Positions 3,460 through 63,610 of a stretch of 64,000 bases of DNA are shown here, in pieces (the first letter of the stretch is position 1; each line of letters begins with the position of its first letter). The DNA lies in contig CAIJYI010000041.1 in NCBI GenBank assembly GCA_903824855.1, forward strand, positions 27,159 to 91,158, given 5' to 3'. Made by a program: the position numbers and the translations under genes. Under the pieces are notes generated by a model. The model had not been told where the DNA came from. It saw nothing but the letters and a program-made list of their open reading frames with translations, and ran no database searches. The stretch comes from an uncultured bacterium (GTDB lineage Bacteria; Patescibacteriota; Minisyncoccia; Phycocordibacterales; CAIJYI01).

Positions 3460-3531
3460 GGCCCTATCGTCTAACGGTTAGGACGAAAGCTTCTCAAGCT
3501 TTAAATCAGAGTTCGATTCTCTGTAGGGTCA
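3460..3531 (+). tRNA. tRNA-Glu (anticodon CUC)
   Basis: Hand-folded cloverleaf. The 7-bp acceptor GGCCCTA/TAGGGTC has one G-T pair. D-stem is GTCT/GGAC. Anticodon stem AAAGC/GCTTT carries loop TTCTCAA, giving CTC. T-arm is CAGAG-TTCGATT-CTCTG, discriminator A. No CCA is encoded. Confidence 0.8.
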
Positions 3532-3555
3532 CAAAACGCAAAATAAATAAAAATT

Positions 3556-3602
3556 TGGGGGTCGTTCCGCCTTGTTGGCGGTGCGACCCCCAATTTTTTA
3601 TT
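3556..3602 (+). terminator. Rho-independent terminator downstream of tRNA-Glu
   Basis: GC-rich hairpin GGGGGTCG...CGACCCCC with an inner CCGCC/GGCGG stem, followed by AATTTTTTATTTATTTT. Confidence 0.75.
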
Positions 3603-3609
3603 TATTTTA

Positions 3610-8149: not shown

Positions 8150-9202
8150 ATGAACAAACTACGAATCAAAACCGACGCAAAAATTTTAATCTGTTTTCTC
8201 TCCATTATCCTCCTTTGTTTTATACAGATGGGAGTTACCTATTTATATCAAGGTGGCGTCTTAAAAAATATCACAAATCTGGAAGGAGTGGAAAACTCAC
8301 TGCAAGTTCTTGCCATATCGAAAAATGGTGACGACCATGTACTCGATGAAACTATTTATTTTTCAATTCTTTACGCCGAGAAAGGTGATTATGAGATGGT
8401 AAATAGCTACAAATCAAAATATGATCAATTATTGGCTGAAAGTAAGATTCGTTTTGAAAAAGGAAGTATTGCCTCTCTCTTGAAACAGAGCCATAGAACG
8501 GCGAAGGATAAACAACTGACAGAGCTGTATATACAAAATATCGCTTCAGCAGAAACCGGTATGAGAGTAATTGTTACGGATGCGTGGACTGCTTTACAAA
8601 ATAAGGATATTCAAAAAGCCAATGCTTTAATCACAAGTTCAGATTATAAAAAATATCATGAGGAAATGCATCTCAATATTGATAATTGGATAGAACTGGA
8701 AACATCGAATCTTGATGTTCTCCGAAATATTGTTTTTACACAATTACAAAACTCAATTTCTTTCACTCTTGTATATTTTATTATGATGCTGGCGGTTTTG
8801 CTTTTTGTTCTTTTCGCCGTCCGAACCTTTGTTGCAGAGCGAGATAGATTTTATGAATTAATTTATAATACTTCACAAGATGCGATGATGACGCTGGAAG
8901 GGCCGGACTGGAAGTTTACATCGGGGAATCCAATGGCTTTAAGGCTATTTAATGTCAAAGACAAAAATGAATTTATGTCTCTCAGTCTCGTTGATTTATC
9001 ACCGGAGAAACAGGAAGATGGACAGCTTTCAAGTGAAAAGGCAAAGATGATGATTGAAAGAGGAATGAAAGAAGGAAGAATTTCTTTCCGCTGGTTGCAT
9101 AAAGAATTTAACGGAAATAATTTTCATGCCGATGTATTGATGAGCAGAATTGATGAAAAAGGAAAGTCATATCTGCAGGCAATCGTAAGAAAAATGGATT
9201 AG
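8150..9202 (+). CDS. Membrane sensor protein with a C-terminal PAS-like domain and no output domain
   Basis: 350 aa: N-terminal TM, extracytoplasmic segment, second TM (TLVYFIMMLAVLLFVLFAV), then a ~110-aa PAS-like fold (YNTSQDAMMTLEGPDW...RWLHKEFNGNNFHADV). No kinase or GGDEF domain is present. Confidence 0.5.
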   Translation: MNKLRIKTDAKILICFLSIILLCFIQMGVTYLYQGGVLKNITNLEGVENSLQVLAISKNGDDHVLDETIYFSILYAEKGDYEMVNSYKSKYDQLLAESKIRFEKGSIASLLKQSHRTAKDKQLTELYIQNIASAETGMRVIVTDAWTALQNKDIQKANALITSSDYKKYHEEMHLNIDNWIELETSNLDVLRNIVFTQLQNSISFTLVYFIMMLAVLLFVLFAVRTFVAERDRFYELIYNTSQDAMMTLEGPDWKFTSGNPMALRLFNVKDKNEFMSLSLVDLSPEKQEDGQLSSEKAKMMIERGMKEGRISFRWLHKEFNGNNFHADVLMSRIDEKGKSYLQAIVRKMD

Positions 9203-32599: not shown

Positions 32600-33283
32600 A
32601 TGCAAGATTTTATCTGGGAACGCGAATATCGAAACCCGCTTTTGGTTACCAAAGGCGAGGATCCGCAGAAAGATACTCTGCGATTTTTGAAGTGGCTCCG
32701 GCGCGAGAGAGAAATTCCTCTTGATCATCTCTCCGTGCTAGATTTGGGATGCGGAACAGGACGAAATTCAAACTATCTCGCAGAACTCGATAATATTGTT
32801 ACCGGATACGAAATTTCAAAAACGGCAATCGAACTGGCAAAAGAACGAGCAAAAAATCTCAAAATCAATGTTGACTATCGAGTCCAGAATATCGGTGCTC
32901 CATACCCACTCGCTGATAATTCAATGGATGTCGTTATTGATGTAACTTCGTCAAATTCATTAAATGAACAAGAAAGAGAAATCTATCTTTCTGAAACAGC
33001 ACGAGTATTAAAACAGGGCGGACATTTTTTTGTAAAAACTCTCTGCAAAGACGGCGACCAGAATGCAAAAGCGCTCATAAAAAATAATCCGGGTCCGGAA
33101 TATGACACCTATATCAATAAAGACATGGGGTTAACCGAGCGCGTTTTTACCGAGAAAGATTTCAGAGAAATGTATTCAAAATATTTTCAAATCCTCGAAC
33201 TGGAAAAAAAGACCAGCTACACCAGATTCAAAAATCAAAGCTACAAAAGAAATTTCTGGCTAGCGTATATGGTAAAATTTTAA
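32600..33283 (+). CDS. Class I SAM-dependent methyltransferase
   Basis: 227 aa. Motif I is VLDLGCGTGRNSNYLA. An acidic motif II follows after a beta strand. Confidence 0.7.
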   Translation: MQDFIWEREYRNPLLVTKGEDPQKDTLRFLKWLRREREIPLDHLSVLDLGCGTGRNSNYLAELDNIVTGYEISKTAIELAKERAKNLKINVDYRVQNIGAPYPLADNSMDVVIDVTSSNSLNEQEREIYLSETARVLKQGGHFFVKTLCKDGDQNAKALIKNNPGPEYDTYINKDMGLTERVFTEKDFREMYSKYFQILELEKKTSYTRFKNQSYKRNFWLAYMVKF

Positions 33284-33286
33284 ATC

Positions 33287-33311
33287 CACTTGGCGGTGAA
33301 ACCGCCAAGTG
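33287..33311. repeat. REP-like 25-nt perfect palindrome (CACTTGGCGG-TGAAA-CCGCCAAGTG), followed by T8
   Basis: Direct reading; 4 nt after the methyltransferase stop codon. Confidence 0.85.
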
Positions 33312-50893: not shown

Positions 50894-51229
50894 ATGGGTA
50901 ATTTTGAAGGAATGCCTTCCGTCTCAAAACAAGAAGAATCACAAAAAGAAAAACTCTCAAAATTGGTAAATTCACTTCTTGCGGATTCTCTACTCGTGGT
51001 TGCAGGAAGTTCAAAGGAAGATATTATCGCGGGAGAAAAAGTGCTTGATGAAAAAATGGCAAAAATGAATCGCGAAGATTTGCTCAATCTCACCATGGAA
51101 ATACAACAATATCTGAACGAACCAAACCCTGATTTTGTGGATGAGTCGATGTACAACCGTTTCAGTATCGTGTACGGTGCCGCGTGCATGCAACTCGAAA
51201 AACTCGACGGCAATACAACCTCAGAGTAA
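50894..51229 (+). CDS. Hypothetical protein
   Basis: 111 aa, acidic, no known domain. Confidence 0.4.
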   Translation: MGNFEGMPSVSKQEESQKEKLSKLVNSLLADSLLVVAGSSKEDIIAGEKVLDEKMAKMNREDLLNLTMEIQQYLNEPNPDFVDESMYNRFSIVYGAACMQLEKLDGNTTSE

Positions 51230-51246
51230 ATCTATTTAAGAAATTC

Positions 51247-51270
51247 ACTTGGCGGTTTCACCGCCAAGTG
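51247..51270. repeat. REP-like palindrome (CACTTGGCGG-TTTCA-CCGCCAAGTG)
   Basis: Direct reading; 18 nt after the stop of 50894-51229. Confidence 0.85.
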
Positions 51271-51734: not shown

Positions 51735-53681
51735 TTAGGGCTTTAAGGTTTGGGAAGACGATAGTTTTAATTCCAGATTACCTTTAATAATCAAATCCGA
51801 AGCACTGGTCGCTTTTACTTCTTCTTCATAGAGCGTTTTACAGTCTTCAATGGGAAGGACGGTTTGTTTTGACATTGAAAGACATTCGCCATTCTCAAAC
51901 AATCCTCCATCCGTAAAGTTTTTGTAAGTAAGATTTCCGGTCAGTATCGTTGTTATTGCCTTTGAATAAGCGTTGCGAAGGGTCACTCGGTGAGTTTTTC
52001 CGAGCAAATCTTTTCCAAAAAGAGTGCTGGTTGATGTGATGCCGAGAATGTTTTCCACTGTGGGATAAAAATCAAGGTGACTTCCGGGGGTTGAATAAGT
52101 TTTTGCGGGAAGATTGGTTCCGAGAAGAATAAGAGGGACATTACTTGAACGTGTTTCTTTGAAAGCTTTTGTGGTTGATGTCCCAATTAAATCAGAAATA
52201 CCGTAAAGATTTCCGTGATCGCCGTAGATTGCGATTACGGAATTATTATAGAGACCATTTACTTTTAATCCCGCGATAAATTCGCCGATGGCCATGTCGG
52301 TATAATGTATACTTTGCAAATAATCTTTCTGAATAGCATTAAAAGGAGATTTTTCAGGAATGGAGAGTGTCTGTAAATTGGTCGGAATTTTGAATGGTGT
52401 GTGTGAAGAAAGGGTAATCAGTGTCGCCATGAATGGAGACTGAAATCCCGTCATTTCTTGCAATGACTGAGCAAAAAAATCAGAATCGGGAAGGTATTCG
52501 GTTTTCATCGGAACAGGCAAAACAAAATCAGATTTGCTAAAAGATTTTTCATATCCGAGCGCGGGATAAATATTGGAACGATTCCAGAAGGTCGGTTCAT
52601 CTGCGTGCAGGGAATAGGTTCGGTAACCATTTTCTTTCAGGAGGGAAGGGAGAGCGTGGTATTTGTTGTGCGCAAAATCTATAAACGCGACGGTGTTTGT
52701 TAGTGAGTAGAGAGAATTAAGAATGACAAATTCAGCATCGGCCGTATTTCCGGCGCCAACCTGAGTATAATAATTATTGAAATACAAACCGTGTTTTGCA
52801 AGAATATTTAAATTCGGAGTAATTTCCTGACCATTTATTTTTTGAAAAAGTACGGAATTCTCCAAGGACTCTACTTGAATAATGATGAGATTTTTATTTT
52901 TTGCCGAACCGAAGGTGTTCGTTTTTCCTATTTTTGGTACTGCGTCTTTCCATTCTAAAACAAGTGCGATATCTTCGGGGGTTAATTTTGTACTTCGCAA
53001 CGTCATCCCGATAAAATCAGCGGCAAAATAATTAAAAATTCCGATTCTCTGAACGGTCATGTTTGGAGAATAAACAAAGCTGTTCATCTCACGAATCGTT
53101 TGGGGAAAATGTGTGATTTTATACCAACCGTTTCCGTTGCCGAATAAAATTACACCGTATCCAAAAAGACCTATGATTATGATGCACAATAAATAAAAAA
53201 CGCGTAAGTTTTTCCACTTGGCGGTGAAACCGCCAAGTGGAAGTGTATCGATAATTTTTTCCTTTTTTTGGAGAAAAATTCCTATAAAAAGGACGACGAA
53301 TTGGAGAAGAAAAATGATAAGAGAAAAGGAAACAAGATTGAGTATTGATCCAGCGAGCGAGGTGGTTTGACCGGCATATTTAAGAGCCGAGGCCTGCATA
53401 AATCCGCCGAAGTAGGAAAAATAGAGATATTGAGCAAGAAAAAGCCATGCAACAAAAGAGGAAATAATAAAGAGATACACATAGCGCCACCATTTCGAAA
53501 AAAGTACCGATGGGCCGTAAAAAAGTATCCCGAGAGAGAAAGTTGAGAGAATAAAAAGAAAAAAGAAAGGACTGTCATGAAGCCCGACAAATATATTAAA
53601 AATCTGGTTTTGTGCGACGAATAATATCGCCAGTGAAATCGGCAGAAAAAGAAAAGAATTTTTTGGGAGAAATTTCTTCAT
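51735..53681 (-). CDS. LtaS-like sulfatase-family membrane enzyme (polyglycerolphosphate/lipoteichoic-acid synthase-like); contains an in-frame REP copy
   Basis: 648 aa. About 5 N-terminal TM helices, then a sulfatase domain (NLIIIQVESLEN...YYTQVGAGNTADAEF...). REP-encoded LPLGGFTAKW sits in the TM/linker region. Confidence 0.7.
   Translation of the reverse strand: MKKFLPKNSFLFLPISLAILFVAQNQIFNIFVGLHDSPFFFLFILSTFSLGILFYGPSVLFSKWWRYVYLFIISSFVAWLFLAQYLYFSYFGGFMQASALKYAGQTTSLAGSILNLVSFSLIIFLLQFVVLFIGIFLQKKEKIIDTLPLGGFTAKWKNLRVFYLLCIIIIGLFGYGVILFGNGNGWYKITHFPQTIREMNSFVYSPNMTVQRIGIFNYFAADFIGMTLRSTKLTPEDIALVLEWKDAVPKIGKTNTFGSAKNKNLIIIQVESLENSVLFQKINGQEITPNLNILAKHGLYFNNYYTQVGAGNTADAEFVILNSLYSLTNTVAFIDFAHNKYHALPSLLKENGYRTYSLHADEPTFWNRSNIYPALGYEKSFSKSDFVLPVPMKTEYLPDSDFFAQSLQEMTGFQSPFMATLITLSSHTPFKIPTNLQTLSIPEKSPFNAIQKDYLQSIHYTDMAIGEFIAGLKVNGLYNNSVIAIYGDHGNLYGISDLIGTSTTKAFKETRSSNVPLILLGTNLPAKTYSTPGSHLDFYPTVENILGITSTSTLFGKDLLGKTHRVTLRNAYSKAITTILTGNLTYKNFTDGGLFENGECLSMSKQTVLPIEDCKTLYEEEVKATSASDLIIKGNLELKLSSSQTLKP
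53215..53239. repeat. REP-like palindrome inside the LtaS-like ORF (in-frame, encodes LGGFTAKW)
   Basis: Direct reading, confirmed by back-translation against the ORF-track protein. Confidence 0.85.
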
Positions 53682-58873: not shown

Positions 58874-59488
58874 ATGCAAACAAGTTTATTTGATATGGGT
58901 GGCGTACCGGCGAAAGAAAGTTATCTTTTTTTTGATACCGAAACTACCGGGCTTCCAAATCGATGGGGTGCGCCTGTTGAAGATGTCGAAAATTGGCCTC
59001 GCCTCGTTCAGATCGCGTGGCTTATGTTCGAAGAAAGCGGAAAAAAAACAGGGGAGGGAAATGTGATAATTCGACCTGATGGTTTTATCATTCCGCTCGA
59101 TTCCTCACGCATTCATGGAATCACTACGGAGCGGGCACTCGCAGACGGTATCCCCATTCGGCAAGCGCTGGAGACATTTCGCGATGTGATAAAAGAAACG
59201 AATTACCTTGTCGCACACAATATTGATTTTGATGAAAAAATTATCGGAGCAGAATTTATTCGTGCCGAAATGCAACACGACTTTCAGAAAAAGAAAAAGA
59301 TTTGCACCATGAAAAGTTCCGTTGATTTTTGCGCTATCCCGTCTTCTCGCGGTTTCAAATGGCCTCAGTTGAATGAACTTCACATGAAGCTTTTTGGCGA
59401 ACCATTCAAAGACGCCCACGACGCCTCCGTAGACATCGCCGCGACCGCCAAATGTTTCTGGGAACTAAGAAAAAGGGGAGTAATCTAG
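58874..59488 (+). CDS. DnaQ-like DEDDh 3'-5' exonuclease (DNA pol III epsilon family)
   Basis: 204 aa. Exo I motif FFDTETTGL. Exo II motif LVAHNIDFD. Exo III motif HDASVDI. Confidence 0.75.
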   Translation: MQTSLFDMGGVPAKESYLFFDTETTGLPNRWGAPVEDVENWPRLVQIAWLMFEESGKKTGEGNVIIRPDGFIIPLDSSRIHGITTERALADGIPIRQALETFRDVIKETNYLVAHNIDFDEKIIGAEFIRAEMQHDFQKKKKICTMKSSVDFCAIPSSRGFKWPQLNELHMKLFGEPFKDAHDASVDIAATAKCFWELRKRGVI

Positions 59489-59494
59489 GCATTT

Positions 59495-59521
59495 CCACTT
59501 GGCGGTTTCACCGCCAAGTGG
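59495..59521. repeat. REP-like palindrome (CCACTTGGCGG-TTTCA-CCGCCAAGTGG)
   Basis: Direct reading; 7 nt after the exonuclease stop. Confidence 0.85.
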
Positions 59522-60101: not shown

Positions 60102-61100
60102 ATGGAATTTTCAATGATTAAAGAAATACTGGCTCGTGAGCCGAAATACCGTTTGGTCCAGGTGAACCAAGCGATTTTTTCCGATCTTGCAGAAAGCTGG
60201 GACGAAGTCACCGCACTTCCAAAAAAACTTCGCGAAACTTTGCAGGCGGAATGCCCGCTTGAAATCAATGCCGAACTCTCTTTATCCGATGATAAAGATA
60301 CCGCAAAGGCCCTTATTCGCCTCGCTGATGGAAAATTTATTGAAACAGTCCTTATGCGCCACGAAGACGGTCGCAACACCGTATGCGTGTCATGTATGGT
60401 CGGGTGTCCGATGAAATGTGCTTTCTGCGCGACGGGTGAAATGGGACTTTTGCGAAAATTAACCGCTGATGAAATCATTACACAAGTTTTGTTTTTCTCG
60501 CGCTTTTTAAAGAAAGAAAATGCCCGTGTCGGGAGTGTTGTTTTTATGGGAATGGGTGAACCTTTTTTGAATTACGATAATGTGATGCAGGCGGTAAGAA
60601 TCTTAAATAATCCTGAATGTTTCGGTATCGGAGCGCGTCATATTTCAATTTCCACCTGTGGAATTTTTGACGGCATCAGAAAACTTACTACGGAAGATAT
60701 TGCCGTGAATCTTGCCATCTCGCTTCATGCACCAAACGATGAAGTACGCAGGAAAATTATGCCTGTGGCGGAAGGGTATACGATTGCGGAACTTCTCACC
60801 GTGATTGATGAATATATCGCAAAAACTCGTCGAAAAGTTATGTTTGAATATCTTTTGATTGACGGAGTAAATGATACCGACGAAATGGCTCGAGAACTTG
60901 CTACAATCTTGAAACATAAATTATGCGTAGTGAATCTTATTCAATACAACGACACCGGCGCTTTCGTCGCGTCATCGCATAATCGTATGAATCGTTTCAA
61001 AGAAATTCTTGAAAAAGCAAAAATAGAAGTAACAATGCGCTACCGTTTCGGACGAGACATAAAAGGCGCCTGTGGCCAACTCGCTACCGGCAGAAATTAA
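60102..61100 (+). CDS. rlmN: Radical-SAM 23S rRNA/tRNA adenine-C2 methyltransferase (RlmN/Cfr family)
   Basis: 332 aa. The CxxxCxxC cluster is CPMKCAFCATG. A conserved upstream Cys lies in CVSCMVGC, and the C-terminal catalytic Cys in GACGQL. Confidence 0.85.
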   Translation: MEFSMIKEILAREPKYRLVQVNQAIFSDLAESWDEVTALPKKLRETLQAECPLEINAELSLSDDKDTAKALIRLADGKFIETVLMRHEDGRNTVCVSCMVGCPMKCAFCATGEMGLLRKLTADEIITQVLFFSRFLKKENARVGSVVFMGMGEPFLNYDNVMQAVRILNNPECFGIGARHISISTCGIFDGIRKLTTEDIAVNLAISLHAPNDEVRRKIMPVAEGYTIAELLTVIDEYIAKTRRKVMFEYLLIDGVNDTDEMARELATILKHKLCVVNLIQYNDTGAFVASSHNRMNRFKEILEKAKIEVTMRYRFGRDIKGACGQLATGRN

Positions 61101-61120: not shown

Positions 61121-61145
61121 CACTTGGCGGTTTCACCGCCAAGTG
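61121..61145. repeat. REP-like palindrome (TTTCA loop orientation) 17 nt upstream of the RAYT gene
   Basis: Direct reading. Confidence 0.85.
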
Positions 61146-61161
61146 ATATGATTGCTGAACT

Positions 61162-61818
61162 ATGAATAGACAACCAATGGTAACAGGGGAATTTTATCAT
61201 GCATACAATCACGGAGTGGAAGACCGCGACATTATTCTTGATAATTTTGATGCTCTCCGTTTTTTAGAAAGTATGAGAGTGTTTAACTGTGTACAACCCA
61301 TCGGTAGTATATACGAGCAGTCATTTGTTCACGAAAATTTACTTGGCGGTGAAACCGCCAAGTCAAAATTGGTTAACATCGTTGCCTATTGTATTAATCC
61401 GAATCACTTCCATTTATTACTTGAACAGGTGTCAGATAATGGAATAAGCGAATTCATGAAGCGTTTAGGAGGAGGATATACATGGTATTACAACAATAAA
61501 CATAAGAGAAAAGGAAGTCTGTTCCGGGGTGTTTTTCGCTCATCTCATATCTCCACAGACGCATACATAAATCATTTAAGTGCTTATATAAATCTAAATG
61601 ATCACGTTCATCAACTTGGCGGTGAAACCGCCAAGTTGGTTAAGTCGAGTTGGGGAGAGTATATTGGAAAAGTTACTCATCCGATGTGCACAAAAGAAAT
61701 TGTTTTAGGTCAATTCAAAAATAAAAAAGAATATAAAAAATATGCAGAAGATTCTCTCTCCGGAATGCAGGACAGAAAAAAAATAGAAAGAGAAGAAAAA
61801 TATTTAATGATTGATTAA
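61162..61818 (+). CDS. REP-associated tyrosine transposase (RAYT; IS200/IS605 TnpA-like HUH Y1 enzyme) carrying two in-frame REP copies
   Basis: 218 aa. HUH motif is NPNHFHLLLE. The region GGGYTWYYNNKHKRKGSLFRGVF resembles the TnpA core, and the catalytic-Tyr region is AYINHLSAYINLN. REP-encoded NLLGGETAKSKL and HQLGGETAKLVK interrupt it. Confidence 0.75.
   Translation: MNRQPMVTGEFYHAYNHGVEDRDIILDNFDALRFLESMRVFNCVQPIGSIYEQSFVHENLLGGETAKSKLVNIVAYCINPNHFHLLLEQVSDNGISEFMKRLGGGYTWYYNNKHKRKGSLFRGVFRSSHISTDAYINHLSAYINLNDHVHQLGGETAKLVKSSWGEYIGKVTHPMCTKEIVLGQFKNKKEYKKYAEDSLSGMQDRKKIEREEKYLMID
61341..61363. repeat. REP-like palindrome inside the RAYT ORF (encodes LLGGETAKS)
   Basis: Direct reading. 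Confidence 0.85.
61614..61636. repeat. REP-like palindrome inside the RAYT ORF (encodes QLGGETAKL)
   Basis: Direct reading. Confidence 0.85.
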
Positions 61819-61823
61819 TTTTT

Positions 61824-61848
61824 CACTTGGCGGTGAAACCGCCAAGTG
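61824..61848. repeat. REP-like palindrome (TGAAA loop orientation) 6 nt after the RAYT stop; inverted relative to 61121-61145
   Basis: Direct reading. Confidence 0.85.
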
Positions 61849-61860
61849 AAAAAGTATAAA

Positions 61861-61890
61861 AAATCCCCCGATGTGGGGGATTTATGTTTA
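61861..61890 (+). terminator. Terminator-like hairpin (AAATCCCCC-GATGT-GGGGGATTT) + ATGTTTAT
   Basis: Direct reading. Confidence 0.5.
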
Positions 61891-62168: not shown

Positions 62169-62240
62169 GAGATAACTCCAAAATAAGTGTTATATAATTC
62201 TGTTTTTATTATATCATAAATTAATAAAAAAGTCAATATA

Positions 62241-62280
62241 AAAACACCCCTTTGCGAGCTTCGCAAAGGGGTGTTTTTAT
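62241..62280. terminator. Long perfect hairpin (AAAACACCCCTTTGCGA-GCT-TCGCAAAGGGGTGTTTT) between 61932-62168 and the MgtC gene
   Basis: Direct reading. Confidence 0.7.
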
Positions 62281-62290
62281 TGAGTATAAT

Positions 62291-63610
62291 TTAGGGGATG
62301 AATAACAACCCCGCAAAACTTGAAATGGCGACGATGGAAATGGCGATGATGAAACGAACGGCAAATTTTTTCGTACCCTGAAGGTAGGAGTAAACCGCTT
62401 TGCTAATTAAGTTCGTTGCGTTTACCAAGAGGAACACGATTAAGGCAAATTTGAGAGTAATAGTCGGTCCGGCCATTTCCGCGAGATTGATAACGATAGC
62501 ATCCATTCCGACAAATGAGGCGATAATGGAACTGATGATAAATCCTGCATTTCCGAACATGATCAAACAGATTTTTGTGAGAAGTTTAACACAGGTGATA
62601 AGTACCGCAAATTTGAGGGCTGATTCAAGAGAGAAAATTTTGAAATCTTTGATACCGCGTTCTTCCACGGTTATTTCCGGCTCGTGTTTTTTGAGGAAAT
62701 AAATGGAAAGTAATCCTGCGGTCGCAATCATTATGAGCAAGCTCGGAATAAGTGAAATGAGCCATTGGCCATTGAGAGGCCCTGCAAGGAGAAATACCTG
62801 CATAAAACTTGCCATGTTGGAGAGAAGTGCTGCTCCGATGAGGTAATTTATTACATGGCTTTTTTGACTGCGAAGAGCGAGTGATTGAGTGGTGGAAGTT
62901 GAAGAAACAAATCCTCCGAGAAAGCTTGCGACGGTAAAACTGCTTTTATTACCGATAAGTCTACCTAACGCATATCCGAAGACGTCGATTCCTGTAATGA
63001 GTACGACAACAAACCACAGTTTTTGGGGATTGATTATCTCAAGATTCATGAATGGTCCGATGGAAAGATTCATATTCTGGATTATCTGAACGACGACGGG
63101 GATACTATTGAGTGAATAGCCGATATTTGGAAGAAAGGGAAGAATGACGAGCGAAATAATCGCGTAATTGATGAACGATTGAATCTCATTTTGCGATACG
63201 CCTTGTACGAGTTGTTTTGACTTCGCTTTAATCGATAAGATCATGACAAGTACGACAAAAATGGCGACGATGAGCTGAAGCGGAACGATATCAAGCATCG
63301 GTAACATTCCGATAATAAACGTGAAAAATGTTGCGACTTCGGTGGTCATTCCGAAATCTCCCGTGCGCACCGAACCTGTGGCATAATAAATCAGAATCAT
63401 CACGAAGAAACAAATCGCGATGGCTAAGGAAAGAATGACAAGGTTGTTAATGTAAAAGATTCCACATATGGCACCGAGAAGAGCGATAAGCGCGTAGGTT
63501 CTCATTCCTCCGGCTGAACCTTCTTGTGGTTGTCCTGTTTCCCTTTCTAATCCGACTGCGGCGCCGAAGAGGATAGAGAGAACGAGTTTAAATGCAAGAA
63601 TTGATATCAT
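62291..63610 (-). CDS. MgtC/SapB-family membrane protein fused to a DUF4010-like polytopic domain
   Basis: 439 aa. MgtC signature GAAVGLERE...AGGMRTYALIALLGA at the N-terminus, followed by about 10 TM helices. Confidence 0.65.
   Translation of the reverse strand: MISILAFKLVLSILFGAAVGLERETGQPQEGSAGGMRTYALIALLGAICGIFYINNLVILSLAIAICFFVMILIYYATGSVRTGDFGMTTEVATFFTFIIGMLPMLDIVPLQLIVAIFVVLVMILSIKAKSKQLVQGVSQNEIQSFINYAIISLVILPFLPNIGYSLNSIPVVVQIIQNMNLSIGPFMNLEIINPQKLWFVVVLITGIDVFGYALGRLIGNKSSFTVASFLGGFVSSTSTTQSLALRSQKSHVINYLIGAALLSNMASFMQVFLLAGPLNGQWLISLIPSLLIMIATAGLLSIYFLKKHEPEITVEERGIKDFKIFSLESALKFAVLITCVKLLTKICLIMFGNAGFIISSIIASFVGMDAIVINLAEMAGPTITLKFALIVFLLVNATNLISKAVYSYLQGTKKFAVRFIIAISIVAISSFAGLLFIP

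Follow-up and report, generated by a model that had tools for sequence, protein, structure and literature searches.

Hairpin repeats around and within a RAYT-like transposase gene of Patescibacteria

The gene, its protein and its hairpins

The stretch of contig CAIJYI010000041.1 analysed here (64 kb, referred to as the window) contains a gene for a homologue of the Y1 HUH transposases together with four copies of a short hairpin-forming palindrome: one upstream of the gene, two in frame within it and one just past its stop codon (Table 1). A sequence-only reading had described the locus as a classic unit of repetitive extragenic palindromic (REP) sequences and a REP-associated tyrosine transposase (RAYT), in a genome with features of the candidate phyla radiation (CPR). 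To our knowledge, work on REP/RAYT systems has been confined almost entirely to Proteobacteria. No paper in the literature searched links them with CPR/Patescibacteria or reports REP copies inside a RAYT reading frame, the papers found being unrelated ones or ones on the classic systems.

Table 1 Positions in the window of the gene, its predicted promoter and the hairpin copies
Feature	Position	Strand	Remarks
Y1 HUH transposase homologue (RAYT-like)	61162..61818	+	218 aa
Upstream hairpin copy	61121..61145		21-nt core 61123-61143, + strand loop TTC; exact match
-35-like TTGGCG	61124-61129	+	left arm of upstream hairpin, core nucleotides 2-7
Extended -10, TG-A-TATGAT	61144..61152	+	abuts upstream hairpin; ATG 61162, 9 nt on
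Internal hairpin copy 1 (site 1)	61342..61362	+	in frame, LGGETAK residues 61-67
Internal hairpin copy 2 (site 2)	61615..61635	+	in frame, LGGETAK residues 152-158
Downstream hairpin copy	61824..61848		core 61826-61846, loop GAA
Dispersed copy	33287..33311		3 nt past stop of ORF 32600-33283 (+), then T8
Dispersed copy	51246..51270		16 nt past stop of ORF 50894-51229 (+), convergent genes either side
Dispersed copy	53215..53239	-	in frame inside LTA-synthase-family ORF 51735-53681 (-)
Dispersed copy	59496..59520		7 nt past stop of RNase-T-like ORF 58874-59488 (+)

The identification of the gene as one for a Y1 HUH transposase was borne out. The Pfam model Y1_Tnp (PF01797) matched residues 64-144 of the protein with 36.4 bits, against a gathering cut-off of 23 (E 6.3e-9). 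The HUH motif is H82-F-H84 (61405-61413) and the catalytic tyrosine is Tyr142 (61585-61587), within AYINLN, with Asn146 four residues on; H82, H84, Y142 and N146 are invariant among 27 homologues, and in an alignment with E. coli RayT, H82-F-H84 and Tyr142 fall opposite its HUH motif and its Tyr. An AlphaFold model of the protein was obtained with a predicted local distance difference test score (pLDDT) of 80 and a predicted TM-score (pTM) of 0.79. When this was compared with the PDB using Foldseek, the top 22 matches were all Y1 transposases. The best was 4ER8, E. coli RayT with a REP hairpin (E 2.3e-5), and the next were the TnpA proteins of IS608 and ISDra2 (E ~4e-4 to 1e-3). Entry 4ER8 reportedly stems from the 2012 work of Messing and Ton-Hoang on E. 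coli RayT/TnpA-REP. A sequence search of the PDB with the family profile gave nothing significant (ISDra2 TnpA, E 0.6). Compared with RAYT, the window protein has ~55 additional C-terminal residues, which form a long helix.

The protein is thus a homologue of the single-strand-DNA HUH/Tyr enzymes and a member of the Y1_Tnp superfamily. Both Y1_Tnp and RAYT profiles had been named as checks in the sequence-only reading, and only the former scored above its cut-off: the NCBIfam RAYT equivalog (NF047646) gave 26.4 bits, below its cut-off of 80, which is still a higher score than that of the NCBIfam IS200 model (16.2 bits, cut-off 55). Because of this low equivalog score, because neither the two RAYT signature motifs nor an inverted orientation of the flanking hairpins is conserved, and because the hairpin has no GTAG or CGTC tag, the protein is best not classed as a canonical RAYT. 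The closest proteins are from metagenome-assembled genomes of Candidatus Paceibacterota/Parcubacteria, in agreement with the suspected CPR-like genome, and some of them are called 'REP element-mobilizing transposase RayT' by JGI. A second copy of the gene was found neither in the window nor in any of the same-genome loci, and no tnpB is present.

The palindrome is an exact 25-mer, CACTTGGCGG-(TGAAA/TTTCA)-CCGCCAAGTG, at 33287, 51246, 53215, 59496, 61121 and 61824 of the window. Two further copies, at 61340 and 61613, have 2 mismatches to the 25-mer and an exact 21-nt core. No occurrence of the 25-mer is expected by chance, and any match at all was found in 0 of 100 shuffles of the window. The gene had correctly been said to be bracketed by this palindrome, with the loop reading TTTCA in the upstream copy (61121) and TGAAA in the downstream copy (61824), both of them exact. 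The six further copies then reported as scattered are also real, with three of their coordinates off by one; those at 61340 and 61613, however, are not scattered, as they lie in frame inside the gene's own open reading frame (ORF), 61162-61818.

The folding energies calculated for single-stranded DNA of the four gene copies ranged from -11.7 to -18 kcal/mol (z-scores -7 to -10). The hairpin consensus is A-CTTGG-NNNN-(NNN)-NNNN-CCAAG-T, symmetric, with a stem of 9-10 bp and a loop of 3 nt. It is the 23-mer that forms the conserved unit, the A and T at +/-1 being present in 290 of 307 copies; C/G is found at +/-2 in 114 of the 307. A stem extension of at least 5 nt, variable in sequence, is seen in 22 copies (1.7 expected). 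In the window, the stem of the downstream copy is 16 bp once the flanking T5/A5 are included, and the site-2 stem reaches 12 bp (CAACTTGGCGGT/ACCGCCAAGTTG).

Four hairpin positions across the gene family

A sample of 97 homologous genes, 92 with recognisable HUH and Tyr motifs, was drawn from 80 metagenome loci, genome stretches and the window (loci are labelled L followed by a number). The hairpins occupy four fixed places: 16-40 nt ahead of the start codon, in frame in two surface loops (two places), and just past the stop codon. In the 92 genes, 111 in-frame 21-mers have at least 8 of 9 stem pairs, and 106 of these are at the two internal sites. Site 1 lies 18-31 codons ahead of the HUH motif (46 of 92 genes) and site 2 lies 9-14 codons past the Tyr (60 of 92); most loci have a further hairpin 37-57 nt before the start codon and another just after the stop. 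Distant paralogues with 26-38% identity (L026, L017 and L082) have hairpins of their own type upstream, at site 1 and downstream.

Within a locus the copies match each other, and between loci they differ, with paired changes in the two arms. Of 225 within-locus comparisons of the 9-nt arms, 191 showed identity, whereas the mean between loci is 3.0 mismatches in 9, and site 2 alone has 22 arm types. When up to one mismatch and either orientation were accepted, the site-2 21-mer recurred in the 120 nt upstream in 60% of cases for the same locus and in 3% for mismatched locus pairs; the corresponding values were 55% and 3% for the 120 nt downstream, and 30% and 1% for site 1. The same trend can be followed in the proteins: a peptide of at least 7 residues is repeated at both sites in 62 of the 120 nearest protein cluster representatives, LGGETPK, LGGLTAK, LGRPTSK and LGSSTPK being examples among many. 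Among the 975 clusters of the wider family (50% identity, E <= 1e-30), a heptapeptide compatible with a codon palindrome is present at site 2 in 35 of 89 full-length representatives, against a background of 0.0067 per position, and a peptide repeated at both sites is present in only 8.

The orientation of the flanking pair is encoded only by the 3-nt loop, and in the window the pair is inverted (TTC versus GAA). Inverted flanking copies had to be discarded as a family feature: where both flanks have the same stem, the loop is the same in 26 loci and inverted in 21.

The upstream copy supplies the predicted promoter of the gene, in the form of a hairpin-embedded -35 and spacer followed by an extended -10. 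The part of the hairpin beyond TTGGCG makes up the 17-nt spacer to the -10 hexamer, and this geometry is fixed across loci. The sequence TGnTAnnnT occupies +1 to +9 of the hairpin in 39 of 62 upstream copies, compared with 0 of 82 internal, 0 of 61 downstream and 2 of 218 dispersed copies. In 38 of 43 loci the distance from the end of the -10 to the start codon is 6-9 nt, which predicts leaderless transcripts; the window mRNA would be leaderless or nearly so. A promoter scan of the window alone found 5 against 5.0 expected.

Both internal copies in the window gene encode LGGETAK. Site 1 is a loop ahead of the HUH strand and site 2 lies ten codons past Tyr142; in the AlphaFold model the pLDDT falls below 50 only in residues 56-66 and 155-157, at the two heptapeptides. 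In a profile alignment the NPVKHG of RayT corresponds to NDHVHQ in the window protein (family consensus NLNDRVHQ), and the second heptapeptide stands directly after NDHVHQ, ahead of the (L/W)V found in both RayT and the window protein.

The seven codons of the insert are symmetric: codon 1 pairs with 7, 2 with 6 and 3 with 5, as in CTT/AAG, GGN/NCC, GGT/ACC, GAC/GTC and CAT/ATG. Covariation was tested in a fixed-register alignment of 72 distinct site-2 sequences, placed by the Tyr motif and including genes lacking a hairpin. Double-sided changes were found in 180 cells, compared with 69.6 +/- 9.8 on shuffling, and 0 of 500 shuffles reached 180. The covariation score was 0.404, compared with 0.179 on shuffling and no more than 0.15 when the partners were slid. 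The site-2 stems contain few G-U pairs. The encoded heptapeptides are diverse between genomes (LGGETAK, LGHSMSK, LGDRVSK, RGGSTAT and others). As far as sequences can tell, therefore, the constraint on the internal copies acts on nucleic acid. Since template switching alone can make perfect, extending palindromes, the paired changes prove a palindrome-preserving process and not necessarily selection for folding.

A precise gain or loss of 7 residues was sought in the genes without an internal hairpin and was rejected, as neither the Tyr-to-Trp nor the GSIY-to-HUH distance is cleanly bimodal; most genes without a hairpin resemble decayed copies whose length is unchanged. In L087 and L090 the two internal 21-mers are identical (21/21) yet are imperfect palindromes (6-7 of 9 pairs), and in L090 they differ from the downstream hairpin. 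This pattern points to conversion between the two internal sites. In L133 a head-to-head hairpin doublet occupies site 1 within the RAYT gene and is read as SVSGSTAKALAVEPLTH.

Dispersed copies and inheritance

The exact 21-mer CTTGGCGGTGAAACCGCCAAG was found in 82 stretches of the GTDB species-representative collection, where ~0.3 would be expected by chance in 596 Gb; this census used one exact 21-mer, and the genome of the window is outside the collection. All records that name a lineage are Patescibacteria (four genomes are labelled only 'bacterium'), and they cover Nomura-, Zambryski-, Giovannoni- and Kaiserbacteria, Minisyncoccia and records labelled Saccharibacteria. Single genomes other than that of the window have at least 11-12 exact copies across many contigs. 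The exact 21-mer was not found in IMG/VR viral contigs. In the gene-anchored loci, 17 of 23 dispersed perfect hairpins have the exact arm type of the resident gene, compared with 1.8 expected.

Four dispersed copies are present in the window. The one at 33287..33311 is the stem of an intrinsic-terminator-like site. The one at 53215 reads LGGFTAK within a 648-aa protein of the LTA-synthase (LtaS) family, which has an insertion of exactly 7 residues there (PLGGFTAKW region), in a loop between membrane helices. This insertion is not present in any of 16 homologues (51-68% identity), among them that of the syntenic relative L165. For placing its boundaries, the window and L165 DNA proved too diverged to align.

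Insertion into coding sequence is common. Outside the gene loci, 57 of 109 perfect hairpins are located well within ORFs of 150 aa or more, with 30 in the LGG[E/F]TAK frame (frame 0), 25 in the LAV[K/S]PPS frame (frame 2) and 2 in the third frame (frame 1), which has a stop codon in one orientation. Confinement of the intragenic copies to the LGGxTAK frame is ruled out by these numbers. Ten host genes examined with Pfam are intact housekeeping genes whose domains span the insertion: those for DNA polymerase III alpha (dnaE, in three species), the NAD-ligase LigA, uvrA, topA, pnp, argS, tsaD and a lipase-like protein. At orthologous insertion sites across species, the flanking protein sequence is 48-86% identical, the stems are identical and the loops are sometimes flipped.

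The dnaE hairpins of L020, L039 and L049 are at different sites (residues 767, 188 and 190), and another gene has a hairpin at nearly the same site (EGQIATS[ST]P) in L026 and L079 in different reading frames; these cases suggest insertion hot spots. Head-to-head hairpin doublets, 4 nt apart and read through in two frames (..LAVSPPSQLGGETAK..), were observed inside ORFs at L023 3890-3935, at L047 1261-1306 and in the RAYT gene of L133, and are reminiscent of REPIN doublets.

The contig of protein P0003 (L165), which is 72% identical to the window protein, shares with the window the gene order LtaS (-), ..., RNase-T-like, rlmN, RAYT, at ~73% nucleotide identity. This shared order implies that the transposase-like gene was inherited vertically there. 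Past the RNase-T-like gene, L165 has CTTGGACGT-CCG-ACGTCCAAG (8265-8285) and the window has CTTGGCGGT-TTC-ACCGCCAAG (59498-59518). The presence of a different type at this orthologous site is a replacement in situ. In L069, where RlmN is 80% identical to that of the window, the same hairpin type follows the RNase-T-like gene, and no RAYT-like gene follows rlmN. The rlmN gene was seen to adjoin the RAYT-like gene in four loci: it is upstream in the window (60102-61100) and in L165, and 44 nt downstream in L113 and L118.

Comparison with known systems and rival explanations

In every respect that could be tested, the system works like a REP/RAYT system. As in the proteobacterial cases, the protein has the Y1 HUH fold with 4ER8 as its best structural match, one gene is flanked by cognate short hairpins (in the window, and upstream and/or downstream in most of the 97 loci), further copies of this hairpin are dispersed, for the most part directly past the 3' ends of genes, hairpin type changes together with the gene from one genome to another, and the gene is syntenic in a relative, as vertical inheritance would have it. 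To this extent the architecture first proposed holds good; the word 'classic' does not. RAYT proteins are marked by two signatures, NP(L/V)(R/K)xG adjacent to the Tyr and a Thr that is invariant close to the N-terminus (Nunvar 2010, PMC2817692). The window protein lacks the first and has N-D-H-V-H-Q in its place, and no invariant Thr is found in the N-terminal 40 residues of the 27-homologue alignment. Unlike REPs, the window hairpin is perfectly palindromic and fully symmetric around its 3-nt loop, and it lacks a GTAG/GTGG or CGTC tag. Nor is the orientation of the flanking copies fixed. REPs usually number >100 per genome (Nunvar et al., PMC2817692), far above the copy number here. The E. 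coli rayT ORF, taken as a control, has no internal REP, whereas the window gene has two in-frame hairpins and a hairpin-built promoter.

Palindromic repeats that lie in frame in intact genes are already known as such, both as intragenic REPs (Di Nocera 2013, PMC3733652) and as Rickettsia palindromic elements (RPEs), given as 100-150 bp in the account of Ogata 2000 in PMC3733652. The insertions described here resemble both in being in frame in intact housekeeping genes, notably those of replication and repair (dnaE three times, ligA, uvrA, topA). They differ from the RPEs in size (21-25 nt, 7 codons), and from both in that a cognate Y1 enzyme gene can be identified, that the hairpin is used in two reading frames and that it is also found at conserved positions of the enzyme's own gene.

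The best explanation is probably a Patescibacteria-type REP/RAYT-like system. The enzyme would bind the hairpin when it is extruded from single-stranded DNA, cut at its foot and then copy or swap the 21-nt unit. Such copying or swapping would spread the hairpin and overwrite resident copies in either orientation, giving rise to the loop flips, and would keep the copies at and inside the enzyme's own gene matched to the current type. As the unit is 7 codons long and open in two of the three frames in both orientations, insertions in coding loops would be tolerated and would persist. With a promoter made from the upstream hairpin, transcription of the enzyme gene would be switched off by binding or extrusion at that copy, so that the upstream copy may act as an operator and the gene may be autoregulated. 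The internal copies could be further control sites, or tolerated passengers kept current by overwriting.

Several observations weigh against this explanation. Binding and cleavage of the cognate hairpin by the 218-aa protein are presumed, and the symmetry of the element, together with the divergence between empty and filled sites, keeps the cleavage sites from being read off the sequence. Stem extension, paired changes and perfect palindromes can also arise from intrastrand template switching at replication, for which neither an enzyme nor selection for pairing is needed. The promoter match in the window is no better than chance by the scanning tool, its support being its conservation across loci. 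The number of dispersed copies is low, at ~19 per 668 kb of flanks of the homologous genes, and 13 of the 97 genes have no hairpin at all. As the GTDB stretches were found via the exact 21-mer, the conservation of stems there is partly due to ascertainment. In L165 the gene has lost its downstream hairpin and its other hairpins form 7-8 of 9 pairs, while the dispersed type is a different and perfect one. In L029 the hairpins inside the gene are of one type (CTTGGAGGC) and those downstream and dispersed of another (CTTGGCGGT), and two types are found at one gene in L048, L097 and L146; in L048 the upstream and site-1 hairpins are CTTGGCGGT-GAA and the site-2 and downstream hairpins CTTGGAGGT-TCA. 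The mosaics of L048, L029, L097 and L146 suggest recombination at hairpins or two coexisting hairpin families. The mixed or decayed types in these four loci and L165 are not accounted for by the simple model.

A bolder version makes the two in-frame hairpins functional cis elements, the enzyme acting on its own gene or transcript to give autoregulation or to excise, reversibly and in frame, the 273-nt catalytic core that lies between the same-orientation copies, with substrate and enzyme coupled. Translation turns the substrate into two surface loops on either side of the active site as well, so a change of hairpin type alters the enzyme too. This version is considered doubtful.

It is also rather unlikely that the hairpins are host elements unrelated to the enzyme, such as terminator stems and promoter parts, which were spread and perfected by template switching and short-patch gene conversion and merely accumulated at this gene among other places. 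Several copies do resemble terminator stems with A/T tracts, the outward extension of stems with variable sequence is far above chance, G-U pairs are few, and the internal copies of L087 and L090, identical though imperfect, suggest conversion rather than pairing selection. Such a process would not, however, be expected to place hairpins at four fixed positions of one gene family in ~80 independent loci as well as in the paralogues L026, L017 and L082, or to make the hairpin type track the resident gene. No other gene family in the loci has such a fixed arrangement, and RayT, the nearest relative with a solved structure, is itself an enzyme binding hairpins of exactly this kind.

An ordinary autonomous insertion sequence of the IS200/IS605 type, with the end hairpins as left and right ends, transposition of the whole 0.73-kb unit and solo hairpins as remnants, is very improbable. 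The likeness to the TnpA proteins of IS608 and ISDra2 extends to the fold and to the Y1_Tnp match, and HUH and Tyr chemistry and recognition of a DNA hairpin in single-stranded DNA may, by analogy, be shared as well; there are hairpins at both ends of the unit, and the gene after rlmN is missing from L069. In such an element, however, distinct left and right ends would be expected, whereas both ends here are the same symmetric palindrome, and there is no tnpB. Several identical copies of the whole unit would be expected too, and no second copy of the gene was found in the window or in same-genome loci. The gene follows rlmN in the same order in a genome at 73% nucleotide identity. The solo 21-nt hairpins are precisely inserted (7 codons) and match the type of the gene; the mobile unit here appears to be the 21-nt hairpin itself.

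There is next to no likelihood that the LGGxTxK heptapeptide is a functional protein motif with the DNA palindrome as a by-product of coding, for although it recurs at two conserved positions near the HUH strand and the catalytic Tyr helix, the compensatory changes between codons 1/7, 2/6 and 3/5 are beyond an explanation by protein function, the peptides differ widely between genomes and are modelled as disordered loops, and the same 21-mer is found in non-coding DNA and in the other frame (LAV[K/S]PPS) of other genes.

A hairpin family with a conserved outer stem (ACTTGG/CCAAGT) extends across Patescibacteria, its exact 21-mer being common to many species. The gene is self-colonised, drawing its promoter from its own presumptive substrate and carrying that substrate in frame at two conserved loops, and its hairpins evolve in concert, the copies of a locus staying identical while differing between genomes. 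Essential genes (dnaE, ligA, uvrA, topA and others) are colonised in frame in genomes of ~1 Mb, which bears on the survival of selfish or domesticated repeats in extremely streamlined genomes. The system may serve as a compact natural one for how hairpin-specific HUH enzymes pick and renew their substrates, and the 7-residue inserts as a practical marker for CPR comparative genomics.

The window has a GC content of ~0.40, and its GC skew is positive in all 4-kb bins; almost all genes in its first 39 kb are on the + strand. It probably lies on one replichore. The loop orientation of the eight hairpin copies in the window shows no obvious strand bias. An Rfam scan of the window gave only two tRNAs at threshold. 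Past tRNA-Glu (3460-3532), at 3553-3603, a nested palindrome, AAAAATTTGGGGGTCGTTCCGCCTTGTTGGCGGTGCGACCCCCAATTTTTT, is flanked by runs of A and of T. The outer arms, TTGGGGGT/ACCCCCAA, are similar to the related hairpin type CTTGGGGGT..ACCCCCAAG, and a second small palindrome is at its apex; it may be a terminator on an old hairpin copy, or a nested insertion. Two terminator-like structures lie outside the repeat family. One, AAATCCCCCGATGTGGGGGATTT at 61858-61885, adjoins the downstream copy and looks bidirectional. The other, a 20-bp stem at 62238-62280, is directly past the stop codon of a membrane-protein gene (62291-63610, - strand).

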